Shown here: positions 10,280 to 45,872 of the stretch, piece by piece
How the letters are laid out: each line of letters opens with the position of its first letter
Numbering within the stretch: the first letter of the stretch is position 1
Assembly (NCBI GenBank): GCA_016184315.1
Contig: JACPCU010000021.1
Coordinates: 10,050 to 74,049, forward strand
DNA: 64,000 bases
DNA from: Nitrososphaerota archaeon
GTDB lineage: Archaea; Thermoproteota; Nitrososphaeria; Nitrososphaerales; JACQRY01
Reading direction: 5' to 3'
The notes under the pieces: model-generated
Seen by the model: the letters and a program-made list of their open reading frames with translations, nothing else
The model's database searches: none
Told to the model about the DNA's origin: nothing
Made by a program: the position numbers and the translations under genes

Positions 10280-12451
10280 TTGAAGCTGGAATCCCTTCCT
10301 CTACCTCAGCCCCTAATAACGCTCCTCAACGAGCAGGGGTACACAGATCTCTACCCTCCCCAGCAACTAGCCTATGAAGCAGGGATATTCGATGGAGCAA
10401 ACCTCCTGGTAACCACTCCCACAGCCTCAGGAAAGACACTTGTCGCCATAATGGCTACAGGGCGACTCATCTTGAAAGGGTTGGGGAAAGCAGTCTACCT
10501 GACTCCTCTAAGAGCATTAGCCAGCGAGAAATACGAGGAGTTCAAGGCTCTTGAACAACTCGAGAAGCCTGACGGAAGTAGCGTAAGAGTGGCGATTTCA
10601 ACCGGAGACTACGATTCTTCCGGCGAATCACTGGGATCTGGCGACGTAATCATTCTCACCAATGAAAGGTTCGACTCCATACTCAGACACAACGCGTCAT
10701 GGATAGAACATGTAAAGCTCTTCGTCGCAGACGAAGTTCATCTCGTAGGCGACGGACACCGCGGTCCGACCCTTGAAACTCTGCTCACCAAAATTCTTGC
10801 CTTCGCCTCAGACTCACAGATCTTGGCTTTGAGCGCCACGGTGACCAATTCTGAGACGATCGCTAAGTGGCTCGGCGCCAAGCTGGTGGATGTGAAGTGG
10901 AGACCGGTTAAGCTGCTGGAGGGAGTCTACCACTATAATCAGATAGTGTTCGCTGATGGCTCAAGCAGAAACATTGTCCCTTCAGGTAGAGGCGGACCTA
11001 TCGATGCTGCCCTAGACTCTTTGCGGAACGGTGGTCAAAGCCTAGTTTTCACAGAGACGAGAAGGCGAGCTGTAAGCTTAGCTACAAAGTCCTCTGAAGT
11101 AGTGGCGAAACTTCTGTCGCAGAAGGAGAAGCGTGAAGCCATAGGGATGTCAGAGGAGATCATGGCTGAAGGGGAGGAGACAGAGCTCAGCAGAAATCTA
11201 GCCAAGGCCGCTTCCGGGGGATCTGCTTTCCACCATGCGGGTCTGAGCTCTGAGCACCGGAGAATAGTTGAAGACGGTTTCAGGAGAGGCGTGATCAAGG
11301 TTCTATGCGCGACTCCGACTCTAGCCGCAGGGGTCAACCTCCCAGCTAGACGGGTCGTGGTCAGCAGCCTGATGAGGTATGACACGGAGTATGGGGGTCA
11401 GACTCTGCTCAGCGTCTTGGAGTATAAGCAGTTGGCGGGGCGAGCCGGTAGACCAAAGTTCGACACAGTTGGCGAAGTTGTAGTGGTTACTCCTCCCTCT
11501 ATGGAACCTCAGGACGTGATAGAGCAGTATGTGAAAGGAGAGCCTGAGCCTCTCCGTTCCCAGCTGTCGAACATCTCTGCTCTGAGAACCCATATTCTCG
11601 CTGCAATAGCGACTTACCCCGGGATGTCCAAACAAGACCTGAACAACCTGTTCTCGAAGACCCTGTTCGCAATACAATACCAGAAGGAGACAGTGGAAGC
11701 AAGGGTTTCCCGAGGATTAGACTATCTTCTAGAAGAAGGTCTAGTGGAGGCAAGAGGCATACGTTTCATAGCCACCGAGTTTGGCAGACGCGTGTCCATG
11801 CTTTACATCGATCCAGCTACGGGCGTGCTCTTCAAAAACGCTTTGAAACACGCAGCCGATGGCGCTGACAAAACGGTAGGCATCCTTCACTTGGTAGCCT
11901 CTTGCCCTGACTTCACGCCCAAGTTCTATTTCAGGAACCATGACTGGGAGGAAGCCATAGAATTCCTCGAAGAGCATAAGGACGAATTCATTCTTCCTAT
12001 GGCCAAGGAGAGAAGCCTTAGCTTCGGAGATGCTTTGAAGGATTTCCGAACCCTGATGGCTATGCACGGATGGATCAACGAGCTGCATGAAGACAAGCTG
12101 CTCAACAGATACGGCGTCGAACCCGGGGACCTGCACAGGGCTGTGGAGAACGGGGACTGGCTTCTCTACTCTTTGGGCGAAATCGCCAAGCTCGTGGGGA
12201 AGAACGCTCTTCTCAGGGAGATCGGGGAAGTCCGAGAGAGGAACCGCTACGGAATCAAGAAGGAACTCATTCCTCTGACCACTCTTAAGGGAGTGGGCAG
12301 AGTCAGGGCAAGGACTCTTTACAATGCTGGCTACACCAGTCTCGAAAAGGTTTCAGCGGCGAATGTCGATGCAATTGCAACTCTTCCAAAGATAGGTGTG
12401 AAGACGGCTAAGCTGATCAAACAACAGCTCCAAAAGAGGAGAAGCCGATAG
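10280..12451 (+). CDS. hel308: Hel308/Hjm-type Ski2-like DNA helicase
   Basis: 723 aa with a TTG start. Walker A TPTASGKT, DEVH box (ADEVHLVGD), SAT, motif VI QLAGRAGRP, C-terminal helix-hairpin-helix (LKGVGRVRARTLYNAGY). Confidence 0.88.
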   Translation: MKLESLPLPQPLITLLNEQGYTDLYPPQQLAYEAGIFDGANLLVTTPTASGKTLVAIMATGRLILKGLGKAVYLTPLRALASEKYEEFKALEQLEKPDGSSVRVAISTGDYDSSGESLGSGDVIILTNERFDSILRHNASWIEHVKLFVADEVHLVGDGHRGPTLETLLTKILAFASDSQILALSATVTNSETIAKWLGAKLVDVKWRPVKLLEGVYHYNQIVFADGSSRNIVPSGRGGPIDAALDSLRNGGQSLVFTETRRRAVSLATKSSEVVAKLLSQKEKREAIGMSEEIMAEGEETELSRNLAKAASGGSAFHHAGLSSEHRRIVEDGFRRGVIKVLCATPTLAAGVNLPARRVVVSSLMRYDTEYGGQTLLSVLEYKQLAGRAGRPKFDTVGEVVVVTPPSMEPQDVIEQYVKGEPEPLRSQLSNISALRTHILAAIATYPGMSKQDLNNLFSKTLFAIQYQKETVEARVSRGLDYLLEEGLVEARGIRFIATEFGRRVSMLYIDPATGVLFKNALKHAADGADKTVGILHLVASCPDFTPKFYFRNHDWEEAIEFLEEHKDEFILPMAKERSLSFGDALKDFRTLMAMHGWINELHEDKLLNRYGVEPGDLHRAVENGDWLLYSLGEIAKLVGKNALLREIGEVRERNRYGIKKELIPLTTLKGVGRVRARTLYNAGYTSLEKVSAANVDAIATLPKIGVKTAKLIKQQLQKRRSR

Positions 12452-12517
12452 CAGTCGAATTGCACTTAGCCGCCAGATTTGAACTATGTCGCAGATGATA
12501 TAGAGTTGAGGTAAACT

Positions 12518-13843
12518 ATGGGGTTCAGCGGTCTGGCAGCCTATTTGTCTGAAGGCTACGCGTCAAACCGACTCTCCCGCTATTTGGTCGCGATGCGCCA
12601 CAGAGCCCCCGCTGGCTACCGTGTGTGGAGCAATAATTCTGTGCTAAGACTGCCACAGGGAGACACCAGACTTCCAGAAGCACCGATGATCCTTGCAGGC
12701 TTTCTCCGCCGATCTCTGGAAAAACACGATGCTCCTCTTGTTCACGGAGTCATGTACAATGCTCAGCCTTTCCCATCCACAGACAAGTCACCGGACAAAG
12801 CTCTACGAACCATGTCAGAATACCTTGCAGACTGCGACGGCTCTTACGCGTTGATTGCACCCTGTGGAGAAGGTCTGATCTTCGCCAGAGACCCCATGGG
12901 GCAGAAACCGCTATGCTTTGAGCGGAGCGCAAAGGGTTTGGGGCTTGCAAGCGACTCTTACGCCTTGTCCGAACAGGGTTCAGCGGTATCTGTTGAGCCC
13001 GGCAAGGTCTATTACATGGATCTCAATAGAGACCAGCGCATCCAGATACCTCCGCCAAAACCAAGTTTCCCTGTTCCCGCTTCATTGCAGGAAGCTGCTG
13101 TCAACACGTTAACCCTTCTTTCGGAGTCCTTGGATCATAGAGCAATTAGTGGAAGCAAGGTTGCGGTGGCATCTTCAGGAGGAATCGACAGCGCTTTGAT
13201 CGCCCATCTTCTCTCCAAGAGATGTAACGTGACGGTCTTTTCTGTTTCCGCCGAGGGTTCGAAGGACGCTGTTGAAGCGAAGAGGTTTGTCAAAGCTTTG
13301 GATGCGGAGCACAAGGAGATTTCTGTGTCCGCAGAGGCCGTAACAGAAATTATTCCGTCTGTTTCCAAGCTGATTGGTGGCGGTAGCCCTATGGATTTGG
13401 GCATAGGAACAGCTATTCATCTAGCTGCTAAAGCTGCTTGCGAAGACGGGTTTGAAGTTCTCTTCTTGGGGCAGCTGGCTGATGAGCTATTCGGAGGCTA
13501 CTCACGCTACCTGCATGTTTTGAAAAGTAGAGGCGAGGCGGCTGTTACGCAAACCATGCATAGCGACGTTCACTACGCTTATAGGAGCAACTTCGAGAGA
13601 GATGAAAGAGCAGCTTCGCCTTTCCTCGACCTAGTGCTTCCATACGCATACTTGCCCCTAGTGCAATACGCCCTAAACATTCCTTTGACATACAAGCTCG
13701 ACTCTAAGAGCGGTGAACGGAAGATCGTACTCAAGCGGGCCGCGGCTGAAGCCGGTGTACCCGAAGAGATATGGTCGAAGCCCAAGAAAGCAGTCCAGTA
13801 CAGCTCGGGGCTCCAGAAGATAGTGGAGAAGTTCCTAAGCTGA
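12518..13843 (+). CDS. Asparagine synthase (AsnB)-like PP-loop ATP pyrophosphatase with a degenerate glutaminase domain
   Basis: 441 aa. PP-loop VAVASSGGIDSALIA. The N-terminal domain resembles the class II amidotransferase fold (RHRAPAGY aligns with RHRGPDG) but starts MGFSG instead of MCG. Confidence 0.65.
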   Translation: MGFSGLAAYLSEGYASNRLSRYLVAMRHRAPAGYRVWSNNSVLRLPQGDTRLPEAPMILAGFLRRSLEKHDAPLVHGVMYNAQPFPSTDKSPDKALRTMSEYLADCDGSYALIAPCGEGLIFARDPMGQKPLCFERSAKGLGLASDSYALSEQGSAVSVEPGKVYYMDLNRDQRIQIPPPKPSFPVPASLQEAAVNTLTLLSESLDHRAISGSKVAVASSGGIDSALIAHLLSKRCNVTVFSVSAEGSKDAVEAKRFVKALDAEHKEISVSAEAVTEIIPSVSKLIGGGSPMDLGIGTAIHLAAKAACEDGFEVLFLGQLADELFGGYSRYLHVLKSRGEAAVTQTMHSDVHYAYRSNFERDERAASPFLDLVLPYAYLPLVQYALNIPLTYKLDSKSGERKIVLKRAAAEAGVPEEIWSKPKKAVQYSSGLQKIVEKFLS

Positions 13844-13861
13844 GCTTTACATCAGCTGCCC

Positions 13862-14293
13862 CTAGATGTCGAGGACTACCGTCGCTTGCCAGCCGTCAGC
13901 AGTCTGCCGCACTTCGAACCGGTGCATCGTGACTGCTTTCACATCTGCAATCAAGTTATGCTTCTTCATATCGATCTCTTCTCCATAGACATTCGCCTCC
14001 AACCTAAACTTCTCATCCACGTGCTCTATTGAAACATCGTATTTGCTGAAGAGGAGTAGCTCAGCATCCTTGTAGAAGACAAGCTCTTGAAGAAAATCGA
14101 AGAGCAGCCGCTCCACGTCGCCTGCTTCAAGAACAATCTTCCGCTCAACCTTCCTTTCCACCTTGTCAATATTGCGCACCATTACGACCTCTGTAGCCTC
14201 AGCAGCAGAGCCGAAGAGCTCAGAAAGTGTCCTTCCCTCCGCCCGGAAAGCTACGTCCGCCAGCGCAATGTCTTCGATGAAGATGTAGGGCAT
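13862..14293 (-). CDS. Archease (RtcB activator)
   Basis: 143 aa. MPYIFIEDIALADVAFRAEGRTLSELF...VKAVTMHRFEV is typical archease. Its ATG overlaps the rtcB TGA by 1 nt (TGATG at 14293). Confidence 0.88.
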   Translation of the reverse strand: MPYIFIEDIALADVAFRAEGRTLSELFGSAAEATEVVMVRNIDKVERKVERKIVLEAGDVERLLFDFLQELVFYKDAELLLFSKYDVSIEHVDEKFRLEANVYGEEIDMKKHNLIADVKAVTMHRFEVRQTADGWQATVVLDI

Positions 14294-15759
14294 CAGCCCT
14301 TCACGTTGCCAATAGGTATGAATCTGACCACAGGCTTAGAGATCCCGGCTACTCGAACAGCTTCAATCACGTCGTCAATATCCTTGTAGGCCGGCCCAGC
14401 CTCCTCTGCAACACCCTCATAGGAAACGGAGCGCACATAGATCCCTCTCTGCTCCATGTCTCTCAGCAGACGGTCGCCGCGAAATAACTTCTTCGCCTTG
14501 GTTCGACTCATAGTCCTCCCAGAACCATGACAGGTGCTGAAGAAGGTCTCCCTTCCACCAGGTGTTCCCACTAGCAGATAGGATCCTGTCTCCATGCTGC
14601 CCCCTATGATAATAGGCTGCCCAAGAGGACGGTATTCTTCAGGCATGTCTCCCATCCCCGGCCCGAAGGCTCTTGTCGCTCCCTTACGGTGCACCAGCAC
14701 GTCGCGGTTCACCTTGTCAACCTCATATCTTTCCAGCTTGGCTGTGTTGTGAGCAACATCGTAGACTTGGTGTAAGCCGAGGCTCTCCGCGTCCTTCTTG
14801 AACACGTTTGCGAAGACCTCTCTGATTCTGTGCAGGATCACCTGTCTGTTGACGAAGCTCATGTTTATGCCGCATTTCATTCCAGCGAAATAGTCTTGGC
14901 CTTCAGGCGAATGGAACGGTGCGCATGCCAGCTCGCGGTCAAGGATCTTGATGCCGTATTTGCGCTCCATTACGTTGAGGAAGACTTGGAGGTAGTCGCT
15001 GGCTACCTGGTGTCCGAAGCCTCTGGAGCCGCAGTGGAACATCACGACAATCTGGTTAGGCAGAGTTATCCCAAAGGCTTTTGCAAGTTCCTTGTCATAT
15101 ACGAATTCAGGCTTCACGACCTGCACTTCGAGATAGTGGTTCCCCGACCCTAAGGTGCCGATCTGATTCAGCCCACGGGTAACCGCTCTATTACTGATCT
15201 TGGATGTGTCAGCGCCCTCAACGCATCCACTTTCCTCAGTCTTCTCCAGATCTTCCTCCCATCCGTATCCCTTCTCGATGCACCAGCGGCCTCCCTTCTC
15301 AACCGCGGCGCGAAACTCGCTTGCGGACAGCTTGACGAACCCTGATGAGCCTACTCCAGCGGGAACACGGTGAAACAGTTGATCAACAAGCTCCTTCAGC
15401 TTGGGGCGAACATCATCATAGGTGAGATTAGTCAGAACCAGACGCATCCCGCAGTTGATGTCGAAGCCGATCCCTCCCGGAGAGATGACCCCCTCCTCAG
15501 CATCCATAGGGGCAACCCCACCGATAGGAAACCCGTAGCCAGAATGCCCATCAGGCATACAGTAAGCATACTGCAAAATGCCCGGGAGAGTAGCTACATT
15601 GGTGATCTGGTCAAACACCTGCTCATCCATGGTCTGCATAATCTTCTCAGTCGCATAGAGCCTAGCGGGAACACGCATTCCCTGCTTGAAGCTGGGAGGA
15701 ATCTCCCAGACCACATCACTGACGCGTCGAACCTGTTGGGGGAAGGTCAATTCTAACAC
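14293..15759 (-). CDS. rtcB: RNA-splicing ligase RtcB
   Basis: 488 aa. Motifs MPDGHSGYGFPIGG, DINCGMR, GSGNHYLEVQ, HCGSRGFGHQ, HGSGR. Confidence 0.95.
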   Translation of the reverse strand: MLELTFPQQVRRVSDVVWEIPPSFKQGMRVPARLYATEKIMQTMDEQVFDQITNVATLPGILQYAYCMPDGHSGYGFPIGGVAPMDAEEGVISPGGIGFDINCGMRLVLTNLTYDDVRPKLKELVDQLFHRVPAGVGSSGFVKLSASEFRAAVEKGGRWCIEKGYGWEEDLEKTEESGCVEGADTSKISNRAVTRGLNQIGTLGSGNHYLEVQVVKPEFVYDKELAKAFGITLPNQIVVMFHCGSRGFGHQVASDYLQVFLNVMERKYGIKILDRELACAPFHSPEGQDYFAGMKCGINMSFVNRQVILHRIREVFANVFKKDAESLGLHQVYDVAHNTAKLERYEVDKVNRDVLVHRKGATRAFGPGMGDMPEEYRPLGQPIIIGGSMETGSYLLVGTPGGRETFFSTCHGSGRTMSRTKAKKLFRGDRLLRDMEQRGIYVRSVSYEGVAEEAGPAYKDIDDVIEAVRVAGISKPVVRFIPIGNVKG

Positions 15760-15961
15760 CTAATTCTAAGAATAGATATCCGCAAGACAGTGGCCAAGAA
15801 GCACGCTTTTAAGATTTGGGCTCTGAAATCACGTTGTTTCACAATCACCCCTTTTGGTTGGCGGTCACTCCAATGGGTGTTCTTGTAAGTTCTCTGATTT
15901 ATCCGCATGGCGTTAATGCAAAGGAATAAATTTCGGCTAGAAGGAATAGTTAGACGAATCA

Positions 15962-16114
15962 ATGCCCATTTGTCCTCGGTGCGGGAAATTTGTCAAGGAT
16001 CTTCGAAAACATAGAAGTAGGAACAGGTGTAGAGTAAAGGGGAAACGCAAGGCGGAGGCACTACCCTTACCAAGCAGTCTTCAAGAAAAACTGACAAATC
16101 CTATGGTCTATTAG
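15962..16114 (+). CDS. Hypothetical small basic protein with a C-x2-C...H-x4-C zinc-knuckle-like pattern
   Basis: Below the ORF-track size cutoff. Own translation: MPICPRCGKFVKDLRKHRSRNRCRVKGKRKAEALPLPSSLQEKLTNPMVY (50 aa). It sits at the left edge of the Rhs island. No other support. Confidence 0.25.
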   Translation: MPICPRCGKFVKDLRKHRSRNRCRVKGKRKAEALPLPSSLQEKLTNPMVY

Positions 16115-16150
16115 GGAATTTGATGGTTCAAGACGTAAACAAGGTGAGGG

Positions 16151-16462
16151 ACCTCTTCAACAAGGCCACGGTGCACCATCAGCTACACGTATGATCAGGT
16201 GGGAAACAGGTTGACGAAGAAAGAAGGCACCACAACTGTAGCCTACACCTATGGAGCCTACAACAGGCTCACCTCCACAAACAGCTCTCTCACATTCACC
16301 TATGATAACAACGGGAACACGCTCAGCAAGATTGAGGGTGGAGACACTTGGAACTACACTTACAACTACAACAACATGATGACGAAAGCAGTCAAGAACA
16401 GCGTTACTCAAGGACAGTATTTCTACGATGGGGAGAATAAGAGGGTGAAAGTCATCGAAGGT
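16151..16462 (+). repeat. YD-repeat block, copy A (paralogous to 21031..21350 and the degraded copy at 22125..22345)
   Basis: Encodes TSSTRPRCTISYTYDQVGNRLTKKEGTTTVAYTYGAYNRL...YNYNNMMTKAVKNSVTQGQYFYDGENKRVKVIEG, against copy B TSSTGPWGTISYTYDQVGNRLTKTEGSTTSYTYGTYNRL...YDYNNMMTKAVKNSVTQGQYFYDCDNRRVKTIES. 16373-16416 and 21247-21290 match at 43 of 44 nt. Confidence 0.9.
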
Positions 16463-17557
16463 TCCACTCTGATCAACATGTTCAACGGTTTAAACATCAT
16501 CTACCAGAAGAACATGACGAGTGGAAGCATATCTAAATTCTTCTTCGCCAACGGTCTGGTGATAGCTAAGAACAATGGTTCGTCGACCTATTATCATCAG
16601 GACTCTCTTGGAAGCACAAGGTTGACCACCAGCTCATCGAAGCTCCAGATATTCGCTTCGAACTACAAGCCTTTCGGACCCTTGTACAACCAATCGGGAA
16701 CAGAGAAGGTGAAGTACACGGGGAAATGGGAGGACTCACCTACCAAGCTATACTACTTCGGAGCTCGTTACTATGACCCGGAGATAGGCAGATTCACAAC
16801 TCAGGACACAGTTGTGACCATCAACCAATATATCTACGCCAATAACAATCCGTACAAATATATCGGCCCCACGGGAAGAGAACCGGTGAGAAAGGAAATT
16901 GGTTCGTATGAGTTGATAGTCGATTACATAAGAGGACTCGAAGCGTCTCATCCTGGTGCTAAACCAACAGAAATATTGAATATGATAGTCAACAGAGAAG
17001 GCCCAGGCTTTGGGCAACCTAAATTTGGTGACGGATATCCAAAAGATGCTCGCTATATTTACTCGGAAAGCGCAGGCTTTGTGGATATGCTTCATTTCTT
17101 TGATAACGCTAAGTTGGGTGCCAATTACGGGATCGGGCCCTTCGACCCTGCCGGCATTGCACTCGACTATGGCGTGGAGATTGGACAGGCCGCGACGAGA
17201 GATAGACCGAGTGCGTTCAGCTACGAGGACATCACTTCGAATCGACTAGGACGAGCGTTCGGAGTGAATGTCCTGACTTCTAGCATCCTTGTGACTGTTG
17301 GCATCTCTGACGATAAACCTTTGTCACAACAATTCTCTGATTACATGAAGAATATAGGTGCCTCAACAAATCCAGAAGAAACCATCAAGAAACAGCATCC
17401 TGGGTTGTGGGAAACCATCCCGGAAAACCGGGACGCCGTACAGAAGACAGGTTTCCTACCGGCTTCAAGGACATGTGTCATCTGTTATGGGCCTGCTATT
17501 CCAGATTCTTTGGGATCAATACCAATAGTCGGTGGAATTCTGTCATGGGCGTTTTAG
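16199..17557 (+). CDS. Orphan Rhs/YD-repeat C-terminal module 1: YD repeats, Rhs core end, and an unassigned ~230-aa C-terminal (toxin-like) domain
   Basis: ORF track 452 aa. The frame is open from 16148 (after TGA at 16145-16147) with no ATG; the first candidate start is GTG at 16199. YD repeats, then the Rhs-associated core signature YYFGARYYDPEIGRFTTQD, then a degenerate tip motif YANNNPYKYIGPTGRE (canonical form NNPxxxxDPxG). An unrelated domain follows, ending in a hydrophobic tail (GSIPIVGGILSWAF). Confidence 0.78.
   Translation: MGNRLTKKEGTTTVAYTYGAYNRLTSTNSSLTFTYDNNGNTLSKIEGGDTWNYTYNYNNMMTKAVKNSVTQGQYFYDGENKRVKVIEGSTLINMFNGLNIIYQKNMTSGSISKFFFANGLVIAKNNGSSTYYHQDSLGSTRLTTSSSKLQIFASNYKPFGPLYNQSGTEKVKYTGKWEDSPTKLYYFGARYYDPEIGRFTTQDTVVTINQYIYANNNPYKYIGPTGREPVRKEIGSYELIVDYIRGLEASHPGAKPTEILNMIVNREGPGFGQPKFGDGYPKDARYIYSESAGFVDMLHFFDNAKLGANYGIGPFDPAGIALDYGVEIGQAATRDRPSAFSYEDITSNRLGRAFGVNVLTSSILVTVGISDDKPLSQQFSDYMKNIGASTNPEETIKKQHPGLWETIPENRDAVQKTGFLPASRTCVICYGPAIPDSLGSIPIVGGILSWAF
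16538..16807 (+). repeat. Rhs core-end block, copy 1 (paralogous to 18065..18340)
   Basis: FFFANGLVIAKNNGSSTYYHQDSLGSTRLTTSSSKLQIFASNYKPFGPLYNQSGTEKVKYTGKWEDSPTKLYYFGARYYDPEIGRFTTQD, against KYFYANGLMIARVNPFATTYFHQDSLGSTRLTTSASKLQLFASNYKPFGPVYNQSGTEKVKYTGKWEDSATKLYYFGARYYDPEIGRFTTQDP. Confidence 0.9.
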
Positions 17558-17574
17558 GCATCATAAGGAGGTCG

Positions 17575-17985
17575 ATGCTACTCAGAACCTATCTGGCGTT
17601 GGTAACGGCTTCTTCTTTGCTAGGTATCTATTCGGGCATTTATGTCGAAAATGTGAAAGCGTCGAATCCTGGGGTAGATCCAGAGCTGTTATTGGAATTT
17701 GATCCGGTTTTCCCCATAAATGGACTGTTCATCATATGCATAATGATTTTCAGTGTCTATATCCTAGCAGCGTCCATCGACAAGACGTATCCGACCTTTA
17801 TTCTGCTTTTGCCTTTAGCCGAACTGGCATTAATTGCGATAAGGATTTTCGGAGACGAAAGCCTGTTTTACCCAGTGTTATCCGCCCAGATACTGTTGTC
17901 GTCGCTCCTACTTCTTGCGTCCTATGTTTCGCCTTCAAACCCATCTAGACTAGAGATAAGAAGACGGGAAGGTAAGGCAGATTAA
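17575..17985 (+). CDS. Four-TM membrane protein; candidate immunity protein for Rhs module 1
   Basis: ORF track 17407..17985 overlaps the Rhs ORF. Plausible starts are ATG at 17545 or ATG at 17575, which is preceded by AGGAGG (17566-17571). Hydrophobic segments: LLRTYLALVTASSLLGIYSGIYV, INGLFIICIMIFSVYILAASI, TFILLLPLAELALIAIRIF, VLSAQILLSSLLLLASYV. The role is inferred from position only. Confidence 0.5.
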   Translation: MLLRTYLALVTASSLLGIYSGIYVENVKASNPGVDPELLLEFDPVFPINGLFIICIMIFSVYILAASIDKTYPTFILLLPLAELALIAIRIFGDESLFYPVLSAQILLSSLLLLASYVSPSNPSRLEIRRREGKAD

Positions 17986-17989
17986 GTGG

Positions 17990-18959
17990 TTGAAACTAAT
18001 ACCAGAGTCTTCACATGCCTTGGCTTACATAATTCAGGAGAGGGATGTCAACGTCGTCAGCAAATACTTCTATGCTAACGGTTTGATGATTGCTAGGGTT
18101 AATCCTTTCGCTACGACGTACTTCCATCAGGACTCATTGGGCTCAACGAGGCTGACGACTAGCGCATCTAAGCTCCAGTTATTCGCTTCCAACTACAAGC
18201 CTTTTGGGCCAGTGTATAACCAGTCGGGAACGGAGAAGGTGAAGTATACGGGGAAATGGGAGGACTCAGCAACCAAACTATACTACTTCGGGGCTAGATA
18301 CTACGACCCTGAGATAGGGAGGTTCACCACGCAGGATCCCGTGCTGGGAACATCTGACGATCCGCAGACGCTGAACCGTTACCCGTATGCTAAGAATAAT
18401 CCGTTGAAGTATGTTGATCCTGATGGCAGGTTCATAGACACTATCTTCGATGCCTTTGGTATCCTCAATTCCTTTCATACCGACCTTCGGAGTTATCAGG
18501 AAGACTGTTCGTCATATTGACGATGCAATCCGCGGCGTTAGGAAGGTAGATCTCGACGATCTTACTGCGGCGACTAAGAAGATAGGCGGGTTGATGGATG
18601 ATACGCTAAGTCACCGAGGACATTTTGAAGACATGAAAGCGAACGGGCTTGTCGAGGCTCAGACCTTTGAGGCTTTTCAGCAAGAGGCTAAAGATTTTGT
18701 TCATAAGGGTGTGACTGCAGCCAAGAGTGGTGATAGCAACTATAAGATCTATGCCCAGAACGACGGAGCCTATGCAATCGTTGACACTAAGAGGCAGATA
18801 TTTGCTATCTATGATCCCGAACAGGACAAGGTTAGGACATTCTTCTCACCCCTACAAGGTGATGCCGAACATCGTTCGATAACGATGCAACAATACATCG
18901 AAATGAAGCTGGAAGCTGGACGGCAAGGAAAAACAGAAGGCTGGAGGCCCACTGGTTAA
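17990..18959 (+). pseudogene. Orphan Rhs C-terminal module 2: Rhs core end with a canonical DPxG tip and an unassigned toxin-like domain, split by a +1 frame shift near 18465-18480
   Basis: ORF 17990..18520 has YYFGARYYDPEIGRFTTQDP...YAKNNPLKYVDPDGRFIDTIFDAFGILNS and then stops. ORF 18450..18959 in the next frame continues sensibly (IPFIPTFGVIRKTVRHIDDAIRG...SHRGHFEDM...YKIYAQNDGAYAIVDTKRQIFAIYDPEQDKVRTFFSP). Skipping one nt near 18471 joins them into about 320 aa. Confidence 0.65.
18065..18340 (+). repeat. Rhs core-end block, copy 2 (paralogous to 16538..16807)
   Basis: See 16538..16807. Roughly four-fifths nt identity by eye, with near-identical stretches (gagaaggtgaagta[c/t]acggggaaatgggaggactca). 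Confidence 0.9.
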
Positions 18960-19661
18960 ATGGCTGTCAGAAAGAATCTTCTTGAGCATGACCCTTACTT
19001 TGACTCACTAATACGTCGTAAGTCGGAAGGCGTGATAGAAGCCCTAGGGAGAGTCGAAAAGGGTCTAAAGGAAGATCGGAATTCAAGAGACTTTCCTTGG
19101 GATGAACCATTTAGTTTCTTGGGCATGCTTGTCTACGATCTGGAAGAGGCGGAGGAGAACGGATACGATATCTCCCCCTATGAGCGAATTAGAGTGGAAT
19201 GCGTTGAAAATGTGAAGGCGTTCTGCCAAAAATGGGGAAAGAAATACCTTGATAAGGTTAGGGATTTCATGAAATTCTGGTATGCGGATTCATATGCAGT
19301 GTGGATCAGGAAATTAGAGGAGATGATTAAGAGCGGAGAGCTCGTCAAAGAATCCCCTATACATATGAAGATTTCATGCTTCGAATCTCGCGTGATAAAA
19401 GCTTACGGGCTTGCGGGGCTAAGAGCTGTATCAATAGCAAAAGAAATAGACATGCACGAAATTGAGCGTATAGTAGCTGAGTGTGATGAACGCTTTCGAA
19501 AATTACTTCCTGCGATAGCCAAGACCTACGCCAATGTTCCTAACCTATTCAAGGGAAATTCCCCTAGGACTTGGTGGTGGCACCATGAAGCGCGCCGCCT
19601 GCATGAGATGTATAGAGCCCAGTTGTCACCTGGAACCCCTGACAGAGATTACTACACATAA
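18960..19661 (+). CDS. Hypothetical helical cytoplasmic protein; candidate immunity protein for Rhs module 2
   Basis: 233 aa. Its ATG directly follows the stop of the toxin-domain ORF (18957-18959). W/K/E-rich helical sequence (WGKKYLDKVRDFMKFWYADSYAVWIRKLEEMIKSGE) with no TM segment or signal. No family recognised; the role is inferred from position. Confidence 0.5.
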   Translation: MAVRKNLLEHDPYFDSLIRRKSEGVIEALGRVEKGLKEDRNSRDFPWDEPFSFLGMLVYDLEEAEENGYDISPYERIRVECVENVKAFCQKWGKKYLDKVRDFMKFWYADSYAVWIRKLEEMIKSGELVKESPIHMKISCFESRVIKAYGLAGLRAVSIAKEIDMHEIERIVAECDERFRKLLPAIAKTYANVPNLFKGNSPRTWWWHHEARRLHEMYRAQLSPGTPDRDYYT

Positions 19662-21435
19662 AGATGATCTAACGGATCAGACCTACGATAAGGCTGGGAA
19701 TCTTCTTACAGTTAAGGATGCTAAGGGCCAGTTGACGAGGTTCTACTATGATGACTTGAATAGGAATATCAAGACCACGTTTCCGGACAACAAGAATCAG
19801 ACTGGGTTCTACGATGTGTTGGGGAATGTGGTGGGTGTGAAGGATTCTAATGGTAACTCTACGAGCTTTGCGTATGATGAGGGGGGTAGGCTGTTCTATG
19901 CTGGGAGCGGCGCGGGGAGGGATAATCTTGTCGCTTGGTGGCTCTTTGACGAAGGCTTGGGCGGCTCTGTTAGGGATAGTAGTGATAACAAGAATTCGGG
20001 GGTCTTGGTGAACGGCCCCGTGTGGGTTGAGGGGAAGCAGGGTAGGGCCTTGAGTTTTGATGGGGTGGATGATTCCGCGGACTTTGGGGATAAGGCTGGT
20101 TTCCGTTTCGGGGGCGGGAGCTTCAGTTTGAGCGCGTGGGTGAAGACTTCGTCGGCCTCTAATCAGGGTATTATTGACAAGAAGTTCGGCTTCGGCGCCG
20201 GGGTGGCTGGTTACTCGCTTTTCGTGAATACGAACGGTAATCTGCGTTACCAGATTTCGGATGGGGCGAGTCAGAATGATAATAATGCTGGTGTGGTGAG
20301 GGATGGGAACTGGCATCATGTGGCGATGGTGAGGAATGCGTCTAGCTCTAGGGTCAATCTGTATGTTGATGGTGTGCAGGTGTTAAGTGACTCTACTACT
20401 GTAGGCAATTTGGACAATGCTCAAAGCCTGTACGTTGGCTACGGTGCCGGTGGGGGAAACTTTTTCCCTGGGTCAATCGATGATGTTAAGGTGTTTTCGA
20501 GGGCTTTGGGTGCGGCGGAGGTTTTGGCTGAGTATCGTTCCCAAGGCGTGTCAGTCATCTATGATAAGATGAGTAACAGGGTGTCTATGAGCGACTCCGC
20601 TTCCGCTGCCACGTATGGTTATGATGCTTTGAACAGGCTGCTCAGCGAAGCCAAGACTGTTGACGGTTCACAGTACACTACATCCTTTACCTATGATGCT
20701 GGGAGCCGTGTGACGAAACTGACTTATCCTGATGCTTACCAGTTGAGCTACCAGTATGATGATTTGGATAGGGTGAAGAGCCTCGGGGGCTTTGCTAACT
20801 TCACTTACACGAAGGACAATAAGGTTAAGACGATTACTTATGGTAATGGTATTCAGACGACGTATACCTATGATTTGAGGAGCAGAGCAACGAGAATACT
20901 TGTCCAGGACGGTTCAACCACTAAGCTGGATTTGAACTATGCTTACAAAGGTAACGGGGATGTAGAAAGCATTGATGATGGGTATGCTCCTACAGATGAG
21001 ACCTACAGCTACGATGGCTTGGACAGGTTGACCTCTTCCACTGGGCCTTGGGGCACCATAAGCTACACTTATGATCAAGTAGGGAACAGGTTGACCAAGA
21101 CTGAGGGCTCCACGACAAGTTACACCTATGGAACATACAATAGGCTTACCCAAGCAGGCTCAACCAACTACACATACGATAATAACGGCAACATGATTAC
21201 GAAGAACGATGGCACAGACTCATGGACATACACCTACGATTACAACAACATGATGACCAAAGCAGTCAAGAACAGCGTTACTCAAGGACAATACTTCTAC
21301 GACTGTGATAATAGACGCGTCAAGACTATTGAGTCTGGGAGCACGACGATATTATGGTTACACTCAAAAAGTAGCTGGTGGATCCTAAGGTTCGTCCGTG
21401 ATGGCTACTGTACCATTTCTCTTATCGTAGATTAG
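19534..21435 (+). CDS. Rhs/YD-repeat core fragment with an embedded LamG/concanavalin-A-like lectin domain; lacks an N-terminal secretion region and the Rhs core end/toxin tip
   Basis: 633-aa ORF. Recognisable YD repeats begin at 19663, 2 nt after the stop of the previous gene (DDLTDQTYDKAGNLLTVKDAKGQLTRFYYDDLNRN). The LamG_3-like block is about 19921-20548 (LVAWWLFDEG...GRALSFDGVDD...FSLSAWVK...WHHVAMV...LYVDGV...IDDVKVFSRAL). More YD repeats follow. Homology to copy A ends near 21350 and the last ~28 codons are out-of-context sequence. Confidence 0.8.
   Translation: MFLTYSREIPLGLGGGTMKRAACMRCIEPSCHLEPLTEITTHKDDLTDQTYDKAGNLLTVKDAKGQLTRFYYDDLNRNIKTTFPDNKNQTGFYDVLGNVVGVKDSNGNSTSFAYDEGGRLFYAGSGAGRDNLVAWWLFDEGLGGSVRDSSDNKNSGVLVNGPVWVEGKQGRALSFDGVDDSADFGDKAGFRFGGGSFSLSAWVKTSSASNQGIIDKKFGFGAGVAGYSLFVNTNGNLRYQISDGASQNDNNAGVVRDGNWHHVAMVRNASSSRVNLYVDGVQVLSDSTTVGNLDNAQSLYVGYGAGGGNFFPGSIDDVKVFSRALGAAEVLAEYRSQGVSVIYDKMSNRVSMSDSASAATYGYDALNRLLSEAKTVDGSQYTTSFTYDAGSRVTKLTYPDAYQLSYQYDDLDRVKSLGGFANFTYTKDNKVKTITYGNGIQTTYTYDLRSRATRILVQDGSTTKLDLNYAYKGNGDVESIDDGYAPTDETYSYDGLDRLTSSTGPWGTISYTYDQVGNRLTKTEGSTTSYTYGTYNRLTQAGSTNYTYDNNGNMITKNDGTDSWTYTYDYNNMMTKAVKNSVTQGQYFYDCDNRRVKTIESGSTTILWLHSKSSWWILRFVRDGYCTISLIVD
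21031..21350 (+). repeat. YD-repeat block, copy B (within the core fragment)
   Basis: See 16151..16462. Confidence 0.9.
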
Positions 21436-21822
21436 GCGAAGCTTGTTCAGAATATCTCTTCCAAGGACACTTGGAATCCTCAGTATGTTCTCATCAATCT
21501 TATCGTGTCTCACTACTAACAGCTCTGTAAGTGACTCTCTATGCTCAGCCCCCTCATCGGTTCTGAAGTAGAGCTCCGCATCCCTTGCAACAAATGTTCC
21601 CACAACACCTCCTAAGCCTAGTAGGGGCTGTTTCGATTCCCCGAGCCTAGCGTATGAAATGCCCATCGATAAAACGTCCTTATCCAGAATGGCGGTCTTT
21701 GTGGCGCCGGTATCGATCAGTAACTCTATGCTCTGCCTTATGTTGAGCTTAGGCACCGCGACTACAGCAGTAAGATAGGCTCCTTCTAAGGGCCCGGCTC
21801 TAAAGTAGCCTTTCAGACGCAC
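21385..21822 (-). CDS. Retropepsin-like (clan AA) aspartic protease, small single-domain prokaryotic type
   Basis: 145 aa with a GTG start at 21822. Catalytic signature LIDTGATKTAIL (D-T-G-A) and later SVLGRDILNKL (flap/dimer-interface-like). Resembles the archaeal AF_0612-type clan AA proteases (family name from memory). Confidence 0.75.
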   Translation of the reverse strand: MRLKGYFRAGPLEGAYLTAVVAVPKLNIRQSIELLIDTGATKTAILDKDVLSMGISYARLGESKQPLLGLGGVVGTFVARDAELYFRTDEGAEHRESLTELLVVRHDKIDENILRIPSVLGRDILNKLRLIYDKRNGTVAITDEP

Positions 21823-22083
21823 CTATACCACAAGAACCATATTAATCGGTTTCTTGGTCACGTATTCTATCGCTACCTCTGAGTATCTCCCAGCCAGTTT
21901 CTTTCTCAACCGTGCCGCGAGCCTCTTCAGGTCCCCGTCGTAGTCGATCACGCTTTTGTCGAGAACAGCTACCCATTTGTCGTCGTATCTTTTGGTCAGC
22001 TGTTTGTAGCTTAAATTAAGCCACTTTCGGTTCTCCTCCGCTCTAGAAATAAGTTCAGCGATGGACATAGTACCCTGACTCAA
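21823..22083 (-). CDS. Small DUF5678-like protein, translationally coupled to the aspartic protease
   Basis: 86 aa. Its stop TAG (21825-21823) abuts the protease GTG (21822). The pattern W..LSYKQL...Y.DKWVAVLDKSVIDYDGDLKRL resembles small antitoxin-like beta-proteins annotated DUF5678 (family name from memory, unverified). Confidence 0.45.
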   Translation of the reverse strand: MSQGTMSIAELISRAEENRKWLNLSYKQLTKRYDDKWVAVLDKSVIDYDGDLKRLAARLRKKLAGRYSEVAIEYVTKKPINMVLVV

Positions 22084-22124
22084 CTTATTGTAAAGAGCTT
22101 AAATTCTTATCTACCGCATATAGT

Positions 22125-22345
22125 TATGACGGCTTGGATAGACTGATATCTTCGACAGGCACGTGGGGCACCATCAGCCACACTTACGGAACTTACAACA
22201 GGCTTAGGCAGGTTCGACCAACTATACTTACGATAACAATGGGAACATGATCAGCAAGATAGCTGGGGGAGACACTTGAAACTACACCTACAACTACAAC
22301 AACAGGAAGAGCAAAGCTGTGAAGAACAGCGTTACACAAAGAAAA
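22125..22345 (+). pseudogene. Degraded third copy of the YD-repeat block (Rhs fragment C)
   Basis: Reads YDGLDRLISSTGTWGTISHTY-GTYNRL..(frame break)..YTYDNNGNMISKIAGGDT*NYTYNYNN..KAVKNSVTQ. An internal deletion removes the DQVGNRLTK.. segment. There is an indel frame break, and TGG has become TGA at 22277-22279. Confidence 0.75.
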
Positions 22346-22404
22346 CACCTCGTGACCGTGCCGGCTACGCCTTCGAACAGACAACCAATTCTCTATTTAT
22401 AGAG

Positions 22405-22506
22405 AGGTCTCTCTGTCTCCGTCTCTCCCCCCCTCCCTCCCCCCCAACCACACACCGCGAGAAAGACAACCCCACAACACCCAACTACCCACCAAAAGAC
22501 CAACCC
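22405..22506. repeat. Pyrimidine/C-rich low-complexity tract (plus strand) with a C7-T-C3-T-C7 core; G-quadruplex/i-motif-capable
   Basis: 22427-22445 reads ccccccctccctccccccc, which is G7-A-G3-A-G7 on the minus strand. The flanks are CT/CA-rich. It lies between Rhs fragment C and the 3' end of the minus-strand gene that stops at 22507. Confidence 0.7.
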
Positions 22507-22884
22507 CTACTCTTCAGCAGACTTCAACTTATCCTGCAAAGAAACAAGCCTACCACTATCCTCAACCGCAATCCTAGTCTCCACCCTAACATTCAACCCC
22601 AAATTCCTGAAAAGCGACAGAAGCTCTCCACCAGAAACATACTCCTTCAAAGTACCCTCCTTGATCAGAGCCGCAAGCCTCTTCACAATAACCTGAGTCT
22701 CCCTAGGATAGAATGTTTCCGCAGCCTCCAACACCTCCACTCCCCTATCCACCAAATATCCGACAACGATCTCCCTGTCAGTCCTCTCCTTGGTCTTCTC
22801 TTTGGACTGTTCTTGAGCAAGCTTCTTCCTAAGCTGCATCATCTTCTTCCTAGTGATAAGATCGAGTTCTCTGTCGCTCTCCAT
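22507..22884 (-). CDS. PDCD5/TFAR19-like double-stranded DNA-binding protein (COG2118-like)
   Basis: 125 aa. N-terminal ELDLITRKKMMQLRKKLAQEQ and the central helical part (LVDRGVEVLEAAETFYPRETQVIVKRLAALIKEGTLKEYVSGGELLSLFRNL) parallel the MTH1615-type family as I recall it. Confidence 0.55.
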   Translation of the reverse strand: MESDRELDLITRKKMMQLRKKLAQEQSKEKTKERTDREIVVGYLVDRGVEVLEAAETFYPRETQVIVKRLAALIKEGTLKEYVSGGELLSLFRNLGLNVRVETRIAVEDSGRLVSLQDKLKSAEE

Positions 22885-23930: not shown

Positions 23931-24901
23931 ATGGTTGACCCTATTCTGACAGCATCAATCATAGTTCCACTATTAGTGTTGCTCTACATTTTCACGCTAG
24001 GTTTCAGGATCGTCATACCAACCGAAAGAGGCCTAGTTGAGAGACTCGGAAAACATGAGCGTTTCGTGGAGCCCGGATTCCACTGGATCATCCCCGTTGT
24101 CCACAGAATGTTTAAAGTGAACATAACAGAAAAGATGGTCACCGTTGCACAGCAAGCAATCATCACTAAGGACAAACTGAACGCCCAGGTGAGCGCCCAA
24201 ATCTACTTCAAAGTGAAGCCAGAGGAGGGCACGGTAAAGGCGAGCCAGTACAACGTCAACAAAGTAGATGAACAGATAGTAGCCTTGGCTCAAACTACTC
24301 TCCGAAACATTATCGGCACCAACACTGACGGAGGCCAACAGTGAGAGGAGCAGGATCAACAGCGACCTCATGAAGACCTTGAGCGAAGAAACAAAGCACT
24401 GGGGAATGCAAGTCGTCAGAGCCGAGCTCAGGGAGATAGATCCGCCTCCAGACGTGCAGGAGACCATGAACAAGGTCGTCAAAGCTGAAAACGAGAAGAC
24501 TGCTGCAAGAGACTTCTCAGAAGCAAAAAGAGACCCAGGCAGACGGCGAGCGCAGAGTAGCCATCAAGATCGCCGAGGGCAGGAAACAAGCGGAGATCCT
24601 CGAAGTAGAAGGAAGGAGGCAAGCTCTCATACTTGAAGGAGAAGGCAAGGCCAAAGCACTGGAAACAGTGTTCACCGCCTCTGAGCAATGCTTCAAAGGA
24701 GGCGCAATAACACTGCGCCAAATAGAAGTAGTGGAGAACTCTCTAAAAGAGAACAGCGTCTTCATAGTCCCAGAAGACCAGCAGCTAGTGAACCTCATCA
24801 GTGGAATCGCAGGAGCAGGCACCGTCATGATCCCGATGGGCAAGAAGACCAATACTGGCGAAGAGCAATCCAAAGAATCAGCTGCCAAATCTAGAAAGTA
24901 G
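23931..24901 (+). pseudogene. SPFH/stomatin-prohibitin (band 7) family gene interrupted by two +1 frame shifts
   Basis: Three consecutive ORFs in frames 0, 1 and 2 (23931..24344, 24370..24636, 24668..24901) together read as one SPFH protein: TM helix, IVIPTERGLVERLGKHERFVEPGFHWIIP...LRNIIGT | TLTEANSERSRINSDLMKTLSEETKHWGMQVVRAELREIDPPPDVQETMNKVVKAENEKTAARDFSEAK | ETQADGERRVAIKIAEGRKQAEILEVEGRRQALILEGEGKAKALE... Breaks are near 24318-24323 and at the A5 run 24525-24529. Confidence 0.8.
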
Positions 24902-45766: not shown

Positions 45767-45872
45767 GCCGGGGTCGCCTAGCTCGGTAGGGCGCAGGCCT
45801 GGAATCCATGTTAACCGGCTTGTAAGCCTGTGACCCCTCGGGGTCTCGTGGGTTCAAATCCCACCCCCGGCG
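45767..45872 (+). tRNA. tRNA-Ser (anticodon GGA) with a 20-nt canonical-position intron
   Basis: Hand-folded. Acceptor GCCGGGG/CCCCGGC. D-arm GCCT-AGCTCGGTA-GGGC. Anticodon stem CAGGC/GCCTG with loop CU-GGA-A[intron]A. 17-nt variable arm (GACCCC-TCG-GGGGTC stem-loop, i.e. class II). T-arm GTGGG-TTCAAAT-CCCAC. Discriminator G. CCA is not encoded. Mature length 86 nt. Confidence 0.85.
45805..45824 (+). other. tRNA intron (between positions 37 and 38)
   Basis: tccatgttaaccggcttgta. It starts with TCC, complementary to the GGA anticodon, as is usual for bulge-helix-bulge substrates. The exact boundaries were inferred by folding only. Confidence 0.7.

Follow-up and report, generated by a model that had tools for sequence, protein, structure and literature searches.

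The chromosome of a Nitrososphaerota archaeon probably carries what is left of an Rhs/YD polymorphic-toxin array, in which the toxins are decaying and the immunity genes have likely become orphans. Within the window, a stretch of 64,000 nucleotides from a MAG of this lineage, the island spans about 6.5-6.7 kb at 15.96-22.5 kb (locus tags HYU39_07500-07520) between rtcB (14293-15759, minus strand) and a gene for a PDCD5-like dsDNA_bind protein (22507-22884, minus strand), and Rhs genes are present in it only as fragments. Every element that an initial annotation had described there was found, with matches far above chance. HMM searches with the RHS_repeat, TIGR01643, TIGR03696 and Laminin_G_3 profiles all gave significant hits, bearing out the proposed grammar of YD repeats, core ends and a LamG domain. 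In a tblastn search of the window, all YD/Rhs sequence fell within 16166-22399.

The contig also encodes archaeal ribosomal proteins, RNase P p29 and S4e, as does an independent 35-kb contig, and the flanks of the island are syntenic with two thaumarchaeal MAGs. Hence, we conclude that the host is archaeal. The organism is a soil or groundwater archaeon. The island had been judged AT-rich by eye; the difference is real (GC 47.2% versus 50.2% for the window, within the lowest 0.3% of same-size windows) but small, and the tetranucleotide distance falls at the 99th percentile. At its left edge, directly upstream of the first Rhs fragment, a small basic ORF of 50 aa (15962..16114, plus strand) has a CPRC zinc-ribbon-like start and sub-threshold hints of Zn_ribbon_3/DUF6758; its sequence recurs unchanged in the independent contig L001, and its membership in the island is uncertain. 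At the right edge, a C-rich low-complexity spacer (22400..22506) reaches to the PDCD5-like stop codon, and two Logan contigs (L009 and L010) terminate in it.

The first fragment, tail A (16148-17557, plus strand), is a 5'-truncated Rhs gene matching TIGR03696 Rhs_assc_core (E 4e-19). It comprises a homology block (16150-16439), the end of the YD shell, a core (16664-16876) and a C-terminal domain of about 225 aa, CT-A (16877-17554). We found neither a start codon nor a secretion signal ahead of the homology. Both core ends of the island had been credited with a DPDG-type tip. That description fits the second fragment, tail B, but in tail A the tip reads GPTG instead of DPxG, with the codon GGC where the catalytic Asp should be encoded. 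In Photorhabdus laumondii Rhs1, the D1338N substitution abolishes cleavage (PMC8636562). Judged from its sequence, the tail A core protease has lost its catalytic Asp.

What might CT-A (16877..17557, plus strand, as a predicted toxin tip) do? A phmmer search returned 193 homologues, in which the domain is always C-terminal and which include large RHS/SpvB/TcdB proteins. The alignment contains invariant Y80, D88, H91, E119, S130, E135, D136, S139, G143 and F146, with G85 nearly invariant, and tail A retains all of the invariant residues. PF13265 (DUF4056) matched 10 of 22 family members, at up to E 1e-5 and below the gathering cut-off. CapCone-DUF4056, CapCone-1/2 and TelC make up a clade of the Lipocone superfamily (bioRxiv 10.1101/2025.01.14.632903). 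As in that clade, CT-A has a Gly six and an Asp three residues before the conserved His, an SxxSxxD motif at the start of a later helix and, in its AF2 model (pLDDT 71, pTM 0.72), a beta-hairpin before the His helix. Unlike the clade, it stays below the DUF4056 cut-off and matches no solved structure: a Foldseek comparison of the model with the PDB gave no match, TelC included. These motifs and sub-threshold Pfam scores suggest that CT-A belongs to a widespread family of Rhs tips with CapCone/DUF4056 (Lipocone) features. Its predicted targets would be the head groups of lipids or lipid-linked precursors.

The start of immA (17545..17985, plus strand) overlaps the tail A stop. It encodes the candidate CT-A immunity protein, of 146 aa with 3-4 hydrophobic membrane segments by hydropathy, and is 34% identical (E 1e-9) to a 127-aa membrane ORF directly after the closest CT-A homologue, on L097. 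The CT-A/immA pairing is thus conserved there.

Tail B (17960/17990-18520, plus strand) is shorter, also 5'-truncated, and matches TIGR03696 at E 3e-24. It consists of a shell end, an intact core (18194-18427, tip DPDG) and the first ~30 aa of a different domain, CT-B, followed by a frameshift. The remainder of CT-B lies in the shifted frame (18438..18959, plus strand; ORF from 18450, HYU39_07500, 167 aa) and is fused in frame in sister samples. The frameshift is due to a 77-nt deletion at 18466 relative to contigs L002-L004; CT-B is intact in three independent sister-sample assemblies, and in L004 tail B and CT-B form a continuous 287-aa ORF. The initial annotation had each core end followed by its own C-terminal domain and a small downstream ORF. 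This was correct for tail A and immA. After tail B, however, ORF 18450-18959 is the frameshifted toxin domain and not an immunity gene, so the immunity candidate becomes the next gene, immB (18960..19661, plus strand), which encodes a soluble 233-aa protein and has its ATG directly after the CT-B stop codon. The exact immB protein occurs on 6 Logan contigs of sister runs. A homologue search with CT-B returned only itself, and there were no Pfam or PDB matches; its AF2 model was poor (pLDDT 51) and the fold search was not significant. Profile searches with immB gave no family match, and no homologues were found. Because neither protein has homologues, position is the basis for naming CT-B a candidate toxin and immB its candidate immunity protein.

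Downstream lie the remaining annotated elements, all present: a 633-aa YD-repeat ORF with a LamG domain, an oppositely oriented two-gene cassette and a degraded third YD fragment. The first, head C (19534-21435, plus strand; RHS_repeat E 2e-31, TIGR01643 E 7e-19), is a shell fragment truncated at both ends and 100% identical to database protein P0001. Its YD homology begins at ~19669, just past the immB stop. It carries a nearly complete Laminin_G_3 insert (20062-20523; E 3e-28, profile positions 2-150 of 151) and a homology block (21004-21313), and its last ~30 codons are out-of-context read-through. Relative to L007, L008, L094 and L095, where the ORF ends in FYAKGFR and a stop codon, the window has a 116-nt deletion at 21343. 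This and the 77-nt deletion could be MAG assembly errors rather than real alleles. The reversed pair begins with a small DUF5678 protein (21823..22083, minus strand; PF18929, E 6e-9), possibly an antitoxin-like partner. The second gene (21385..21822, minus strand) encodes a 145-aa retropepsin-like protein (clan AA, DTGA motif) with weak matches to gag-asp_proteas, RVP and TIGR02281 (E 6e-4 to 7e-3) and to PADLOC PDC-M08B (E 5e-4), and is identical in 5 Logan contigs. Fragment D (22116..22399, plus strand), identified by self-similarity and tblastn, is a degraded copy of the homology block; its reading frame shifts near 22250-22280, it has one YD repeat fewer, and it contains neither core nor toxin.

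How do these pieces relate to a complete gene? All of them align within the final third of an intact metagenome relative of 2,007 aa (L099), and tblastn found no homologue of its N-terminal region in the window. With the relative ~2,000 aa long, the window lacks about 1,300 codons from the start of such a gene. In L099 and in a second relative (L092), a large N-terminal domain precedes the YD-repeat cocoon; L092 is split into two ORFs, with an N-terminal signal or anchor at its start. Both loci also carry orphan tails and membrane immunity genes. Among the closest shell homologues (67-74% identity) are P0002 and P0003, on NCBI MAG contigs, and P0004 (MBI2183589.1), a 622-aa protein from a Thaumarchaeota MAG, probably the same MAG as the window. 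A full-length partner gene may exist elsewhere in the genome, but P0004 too has neither the N-terminal region nor a recognisable toxin; head C and tail A align colinearly with it, and tail B aligns to its end. These comparisons uphold the earlier statements that no complete, delivery-competent Rhs gene is present and that the only head fragment, which has no N-terminal delivery region, comes downstream of both orphan tails.

Direct repeats mark the fragment starts. Block 16150-16439 resembles 21030-21313 at 78-80% and 22119-22367 at 72-76%, and 16584-16806 resembles 18114-18336 at 83%. All fragments begin in or close to one shell block, YDGLDRLTSSxGPWG, as recombination handles would. Might the island then be a working cassette store, in which the tip of a full-length Rhs gene elsewhere is exchanged for those of tails A and B through homologous recombination, or unequal crossover between the head C and tail A blocks creates a head::tail fusion? 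The long open frames of tails A and B, the preserved CT-A residues, the intact CT-B of sister samples and the 81% identity of tail A to P0004 over 243 aa would all fit. Yet tail A lacks its catalytic Asp, a local fusion to head C would still be undeliverable, the block identity of just 72-80% is low for frequent homologous exchange, and the window contains no full-length Rhs gene. We consider a working store possible but doubtful.

We wondered if the coupled genes might instead be TA-like modules for addiction or defence inside the cell (tail B with immB, DUF5678 with the protease) and not relics of exported toxins. Toxin and immunity ORFs are tightly coupled, with the CT-B stop codon abutting the immB ATG, TA-type pairs adjoin truncated YD heads in three related loci, and the PDC-M08B match, though weak, points the same way. 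However, no start codon or promoter has been demonstrated for the tails, toxin B is disrupted here, and an intracellular toxin would have no use for the shell and core sequence kept in the tails. This explanation is improbable.

Could the mosaic be false, with repeats collapsed or chimerically joined and the true locus one ordinary long Rhs gene? Logan contigs do break within the repeat blocks, at 16219 and ~21260, and the MAG differs by two indels from all sister contigs. Nevertheless, three junction regions are found again in independent assemblies of at least five runs: from rtcB into the start of tail A, from tail B across immB into head C, and from the end of head C across the cassette and fragment D as far as PDCD5. 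The coverage of these assemblies lies outside 16219-18172 and 20132-21259. Unique toxin and immunity genes separate the fragments, and simple expansion cannot turn their order into one gene. Because the junctions recur in independent contigs and the internal repeats are merely 72-83% identical, mis-assembly is unlikely, and very unlikely to conceal a single long gene. Bacterial DNA misbinned or joined to the contig can be given still less credence: Rhs systems are mostly bacterial, island composition deviates from the flanks and CT-A homologues include large RHS proteins that carry SpvB or TcdB domains, but archaeal flanks recur on the same independent contigs (L001 joins rtcB to tail A, and the 35-kb L007 joins the ribosomal operon to the cassette and head C) and the closest shell homologues include thaumarchaeal P0004.

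We therefore favor a decaying polymorphic-toxin array. Its intact form would have been a ~2,000-aa protein with a large N-terminal domain, a YD-repeat cocoon and a variable C-terminal toxin; the core aspartyl protease would cut after the second DPxG motif to free the toxin, and the downstream immunity gene would protect kin. What survives is tail A with CT-A and a 4-TM immA, tail B with an unclassified toxin and soluble immB, a LamG head that has lost its tail along with ~1,300 N-terminal codons, the reversed TA-like cassette and a frameshifted scrap of the block. The decay that had been proposed is visible in the truncations, fragment D, the lost Asp and the two deletions relative to sister-sample assemblies. 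Since nothing in the locus is exportable, it most likely makes no deliverable toxin. Both immA and immB ORFs are intact beside a tail A without its Asp and a frameshifted toxin B; if expressed, they would now probably serve as orphan immunity against neighbours' toxins, with the 72-80% identical blocks probably a recombination stock. We infer an inter-archaeal conflict locus, of a kind that is real but ordinary in microbial warfare and rarely documented in archaea.

Like bacterial Rhs/YD loci (the rhs loci of Escherichia coli and Salmonella, and the T6SS effector Rhs1 of P. laumondii, PMC8636562), the island combines YD repeats, a core that bears paired DPxG motifs, a variable toxin at the C terminus with an immunity gene after it, orphan tails that are truncated but keep a shell stretch, and atypical composition. 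It differs in its archaeal host, in lacking PAAR, VgrG, T6SS or any other delivery domain and a full-length gene, in having its orphan tails upstream of the sole head and in its interleaved TA-like pairs. Archaeal polymorphic toxins were already known: the RHS proteins of Methanosarcina acetivorans, and systems predicted in surveys of the kind that the initial annotation had mentioned (Zhang et al. 2012, PMC3482391; Makarova et al. 2019, as cited in PMC8416519), which lessens the novelty of our finding. Those systems likewise place RHS-repeat toxins and immunity cassettes in archaeal chromosomes, on sequence analysis only; ours differs in its lineage, Nitrososphaerota, and its fragmentary state. 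No mention of thaumarchaeal Rhs was found in the consulted passages of the literature or by a full-text search, which returned one irrelevant paper. CT-A resembles the CapCone/TelC clade in being a polymorphic-toxin tip with a membrane-protein immunity partner; it differs in its archaeal setting, without peptidoglycan, and the toxin tips listed for the clade are CapCone-1/2, not CapCone-DUF4056 (bioRxiv 10.1101/2025.01.14.632903). The YD shell with a C-terminal aspartyl-protease plug recalls the TcB/TcC cocoons of ABC toxins, as does the two-ORF split of L092, which looks like a broken single gene because the halves are fused in L099; unlike TcB/TcC, the archaeal genes have no TcA partner and no SpvB or TcdB domains. 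Orphan-immunity arrays and acquired interbacterial defence islands keep intact immunity genes beside inactive or absent toxins. The island has just two immunity genes and no mobile-element machinery, unlike such arrays, but like them it holds intact predicted immunity genes next to toxins that are probably inactive.

To the left the island borders on rtcB (minus strand, 14293-15759), past which lie genes for archease and an Asn-synthase-like protein, and to the right on a gene for a PDCD5-like dsDNA_bind protein (22507-22884, minus strand). Between these flanks lies a co-directional string of plus-strand ORFs, together with one reversed pair. Two 5'-truncated Rhs fragments, tail A (16148-17557) and tail B (17960/17990-18520), match the Rhs-associated core model TIGR03696 (Rhs_assc_core) with E values of 4e-19 and 3e-24; both exceed the cut-off of 32.5 bits, and both also have TEN_YD-shell matches in HMM searches. 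Head C (19534-21435, plus strand) is a 633-aa shell fragment matching PF05593 RHS_repeat (E 2e-31), TIGR01643 (E 7e-19) and Laminin_G_3 (PF13385, E 3e-28), the last across profile positions 2-150 of 151. Many database matches have the same RHS-plus-LamG architecture. A fourth YD piece, fragment D (22116-22399), changes frame and is missing one repeat. The Rhs, YD, core and LamG assignments made in the initial annotation thus hold at significant HMM scores, and tblastn of the window with related Rhs proteins confined YD sequence to 16166-22399. From fragment D to the PDCD5-like stop (22400-22505) runs a C-rich low-complexity tract with a GC skew of about -0.45, within which two Logan contigs of sister samples (L009 and L010) end. 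Beyond the flanking gene, a Band_7/SPFH gene is spread over two successive plus-strand ORFs (23931-24344 and 24370-24636; 137 and 88 aa) and may be split or frameshifted; the same split is present in Logan contig L007.

Self-comparison of the island bore out its repetitive makeup. A YD-shell block of ~290 nt is present in three copies, at 16150-16439, 21030-21313 (78-80% identity) and 22119-22367 (72-76%), and a 223-nt stretch around the core is common to tails A and B at 83% identity. The orphan tails keep the shell homology block (direct repeats D1, D4, D5 and D2), and the same block opens orphan fragments in L091, a contig with a related locus. When we aligned the Rhs pieces with thaumarchaeal relatives, head C plus tail A proved colinear with a 622-aa protein, P0004 (MBI2183589.1). 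The block TSSTxPxxTISYTYDQVGNRL marks the start of tail A, and tail B starts ~100 residues beyond that point. In head C, YD homology runs from ~19669, directly after the stop of the candidate immunity gene immB; the 45 codons that open head C come from reading through the immB region. The LamG insertion occupies ~230 aa of head C and is absent from P0004 and from two other relatives, P0002 and P0003. P0004 and tail A share 81% identity across 243 aa; judging by accession numbering, P0004 probably comes from the same MAG as the window proteins (MBI2184785-9). It has no N-terminal region, and past its DPTGL motif there is only a Pro-rich tail. Exact look-ups of head C, P0004 and the candidate immunity protein immA matched no contigs.

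Could this arrangement be a product of mis-assembly or contamination? The Logan contigs end inside repeat blocks, as expected of short-k-mer assemblies, and those retrieved do not cover 16219-18172 or 20132-21259. They do cover 10894-16219 (L001), 18172-20132 (L002-L006) and the region from ~21260 rightwards (L007, L008, L094 and L095), and three junction regions are confirmed by them. With much of the island tiled by independent contigs, neither mis-assembly nor contamination is likely. The host is named Thaumarchaeota/Nitrososphaerota archaeon in the NCBI source record, in which the contig measures 75,273 bp. On the right, the flank leads to a ribosomal-protein operon of archaeal type, with S4e, L26 and RNase P p29 among its genes, and L007, a 35-kb contig, extends to the ribosomal genes.

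Synteny of the flanking genes extends to two thaumarchaeal MAGs (L071 and L077); there, the rtcB-PDCD5 interval holds glutamate-synthase-like genes and offers no empty site. These two were the only syntenic genome contigs recovered with RtcB as a probe; the remaining matches were mostly bacterial (70-76% identity) because RtcB is too conserved, and a methyltransferase neighbour used as a probe of metagenome contigs found no relatives. A 704-aa ORF at 60188-62302 (minus strand) equals in length the glutamate-synthase-like gene of the L071/L077 interval, and this agreement in length hints at a rearranged rtcB-PDCD5 neighbourhood in this genome. As to signs of a mobile element, the island contains no inverted repeats, and none of its ORFs matched an integrase family in HMM searches. 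ARAGORN reported no tRNA gene in the window. The only Rfam tRNA match there (45767-45872, plus strand; 46.7 bits, 106 nt) lies far from the island and is probably an intron-containing archaeal tRNA.

Complete relatives indicate how much of the gene is missing. A metagenome scan with an alignment of the block found a contig, L099, on which a single 2,007-aa Rhs protein comprises an N-terminal domain, a full shell, a core and a toxin, followed by two CPBP/Rce1-like membrane proteins. On a 2.36-Mb contig, L092, the same gene is present as two ORFs of 964 and 1,067 aa; the split gene encodes a hydrophobic anchor at its N terminus and is accompanied by a membrane immunity gene, and the opposite strand carries four orphan core-toxin tails, some of them followed by small membrane proteins. 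The Rhs island of L092 lies between partially duplicated tRNA_bind and 2-hydroxyacid dehydrogenase genes in inverted orientation (338-946 and 13864-15141). Comparison with the complete forms shows that alignment of the window's fragments is limited to roughly the final third of the 2,007-aa protein. The N-terminal 964 aa of the L092 and L099 genes have no homologue anywhere in the window by tblastn, and hydropathy analysis of head C found no hydrophobic signal or TM segment. Hence, the proposal that no delivery-competent Rhs gene is present here holds for this window.

The initial annotation had also described a locus in decay, and several features agree with this, among them a changed core motif in tail A, a frameshifted toxin domain in tail B and a cut end in head C. 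The second core motif of tail A reads GPTG (with a GGC codon), at a position that is Asp in at least 90% of 22 aligned family members; that of tail B reads DPDG. In Rhs1 of P. laumondii, the second DPxG motif holds the catalytic Asp, and the D1338N substitution abolishes cleavage (PMC8636562). At 18466, each of the three contigs that span the site has 77 nt more than the window, and in them tail B and the 169-aa ORF form one continuous core-toxin ORF, relative to which the window's CT-B (tail B's toxin domain at the C terminus) is frameshifted. Likewise, an additional 116 nt are present at 21343 in each of the four contigs that span it, and these lengthen the shell by ~30 residues to an end at ...FYAKGFR and a stop. 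Since these 116 nt are absent from the window, the last codons of the 633-aa ORF are out-of-context read-through, antisense to the protease-like gene of the reversed pair. The 77- and 116-nt differences may represent true allelic variation or mistakes in the MAG assembly. Six contigs carry the immB protein unchanged.

In composition, the island was indeed more AT-rich than its surroundings, though by a small difference: 47.2% GC versus 50.2% for the window. A windowed profile placed it in the lowest 0.3% of same-size windows for GC and at the 99th percentile for tetranucleotide distance. The LamG-coding stretch (20000-20560) has 53% GC and a GC skew of about +0.38, with the rest of the island at 44-49% GC, which is consistent with insertion of the LamG domain from another source. 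Where the LamG insertion region begins (19911-20055), a little upstream of the Pfam match, contig L002 differs from the window at seven sites, five synonymous and two not. Five of the seven fall within 17 nt, which suggests a small recombination tract or a strain variant.

The two toxin domains are unrelated to each other in the alignment of Rhs pieces. CT-A, the C-terminal domain of tail A, found no match in a word-index protein search; a full phmmer search returned 193 homologues (E <= 1e-3), in which the domain is always C-terminal and the proteins range from 170 to 3,600 aa. The long members sampled are RHS proteins, some with SpvB/TcdB/FG-GAP regions and one with an inserted LamG. Across the family alignment Y80, D88, H91, E119, S130, E135, D136, S139, G143 and F146 are invariant, S130, E135 and D136 lying within an S-A-F-S-Y-E-D motif (130-136), and at least 90% of members share G85. 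Ten of 22 members match Pfam PF13265 (DUF4056), all weakly (best E 1e-5); the window's CT-A scores 17.5 bits, under the 23.6-bit cut-off. DUF4056 has been placed in the CapCone group of the Lipocone superfamily, a group recognised by a Gly six positions ahead of the active-site His, an xD motif preceding the same His, an S/GxxSxx motif ahead of the helix-4 Asp, and a clasp formed by a beta-hairpin (bioRxiv 10.1101/2025.01.14.632903). CT-A has all of these group-defining motifs, including a hairpin predicted at 78-88 in its AlphaFold2 model (pLDDT 71, pTM 0.72). A PDB sequence search and Foldseek gave no significant match among solved structures, TelC included. Because no solved structure matched, we regard membership of CT-A in the CapCone group (DUF4056-like) as probable, not proven.

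Lipocone toxins are reported to have TM or lipoprotein immunity partners (bioRxiv 10.1101/2025.01.14.632903), and immA encodes a 146-aa protein with 3-4 membrane segments by hydropathy. On contig L097, the ORF directly after the closest CT-A homologue matches immA at 34% identity (E 1e-9). This shared adjacency supports a conserved CT-A/immA pair, predicted from sequence to be toxin and immunity protein. For CT-B, the word-index search matched only the query itself, and neither CT-B nor immB had relatives or family matches. CT-B had no significant match to solved structures by PDB sequence search or Foldseek. A CDI toxin ranked second among its fold matches (E 0.29); the model was poor (pLDDT 51), and we take this as no evidence of likeness. 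CT-B is thus a putative toxin and immB a putative immunity protein by position only.

The reversed pair (21385-22083, minus strand) consists of a DUF5678 gene (E 6e-9) and a gene whose product shows a weak likeness to retropepsins and carries a DTGA motif, the two abutting at 21822/21823. PADLOC gave only a weak PDC-M08B match, to the protease-like gene, and we found no function described for DUF5678 in the literature. Small two-gene modules of toxin-antitoxin type follow truncated YD heads in three thaumarchaeal-type loci: this pair and then a YD block fragment in the window (21385-22399); DUF433 and PIN_10 and then an 88-aa block fragment in L091 (7020-9269); and an RHH gene plus a partial gene, with PIN-MazE upstream, in L096 (2895-4568), another contig with a related locus. 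L091 (...FYANGL) and the window locus in its Logan form (...FYAKG) share the shell position at which the head breaks off. This coincidence may go back to a common ancestor that already had the truncated layout, may mark a hot spot, or may mean no more than that the parts sit together in a variable island. We give a low probability to a bolder proposal, in which the conserved YD block is a slot capturing unrelated two-gene modules and, separately, the CapCone-like tip with its four-TM immunity protein is an inter-archaeal toxin directed at lipids or lipid carriers. Such use between archaea would point to a target in the archaeal envelope, e.g., dolichol-linked precursors or ether-lipid head groups, and not bacterial lipid II.

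The Nitrososphaerota are a phylum that includes key ammonia oxidisers. From this phylum, the island supplies two compact candidate toxin/immunity pairs usable for experimental tests, one of them a predicted lipid-directed (Lipocone-type) toxin with a conserved membrane immunity partner. The intact 2,007-aa metagenome relative shows the form of the complete weapon, and the population variants would capture loss of toxin alongside retention of immunity. At present, the island would most likely serve as orphan immunity and recombination stock.

In the archaeon Methanosarcina acetivorans, RHS polymorphic toxins with cassettes were reported from computational analysis in 2012 (PMC3482391). Archaeal systems of this kind were predicted more widely in 2019 (cited in PMC8416519), and, as of 2021, no archaeal polymorphic-toxin system had been experimentally tested (PMC8416519). 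Our own literature search found no such test after 2021. Set against Rhs/YD polymorphic toxins, the island is without the N-terminal delivery part and tail A is without the catalytic Asp, but it has the YD repeats, the core, a variable toxin with an adjoining candidate immunity gene, and orphan tails. We conclude that, taken alone, it is a decayed example and not a new mechanism, best filed as a new instance of the known Rhs system in a little-documented lineage.
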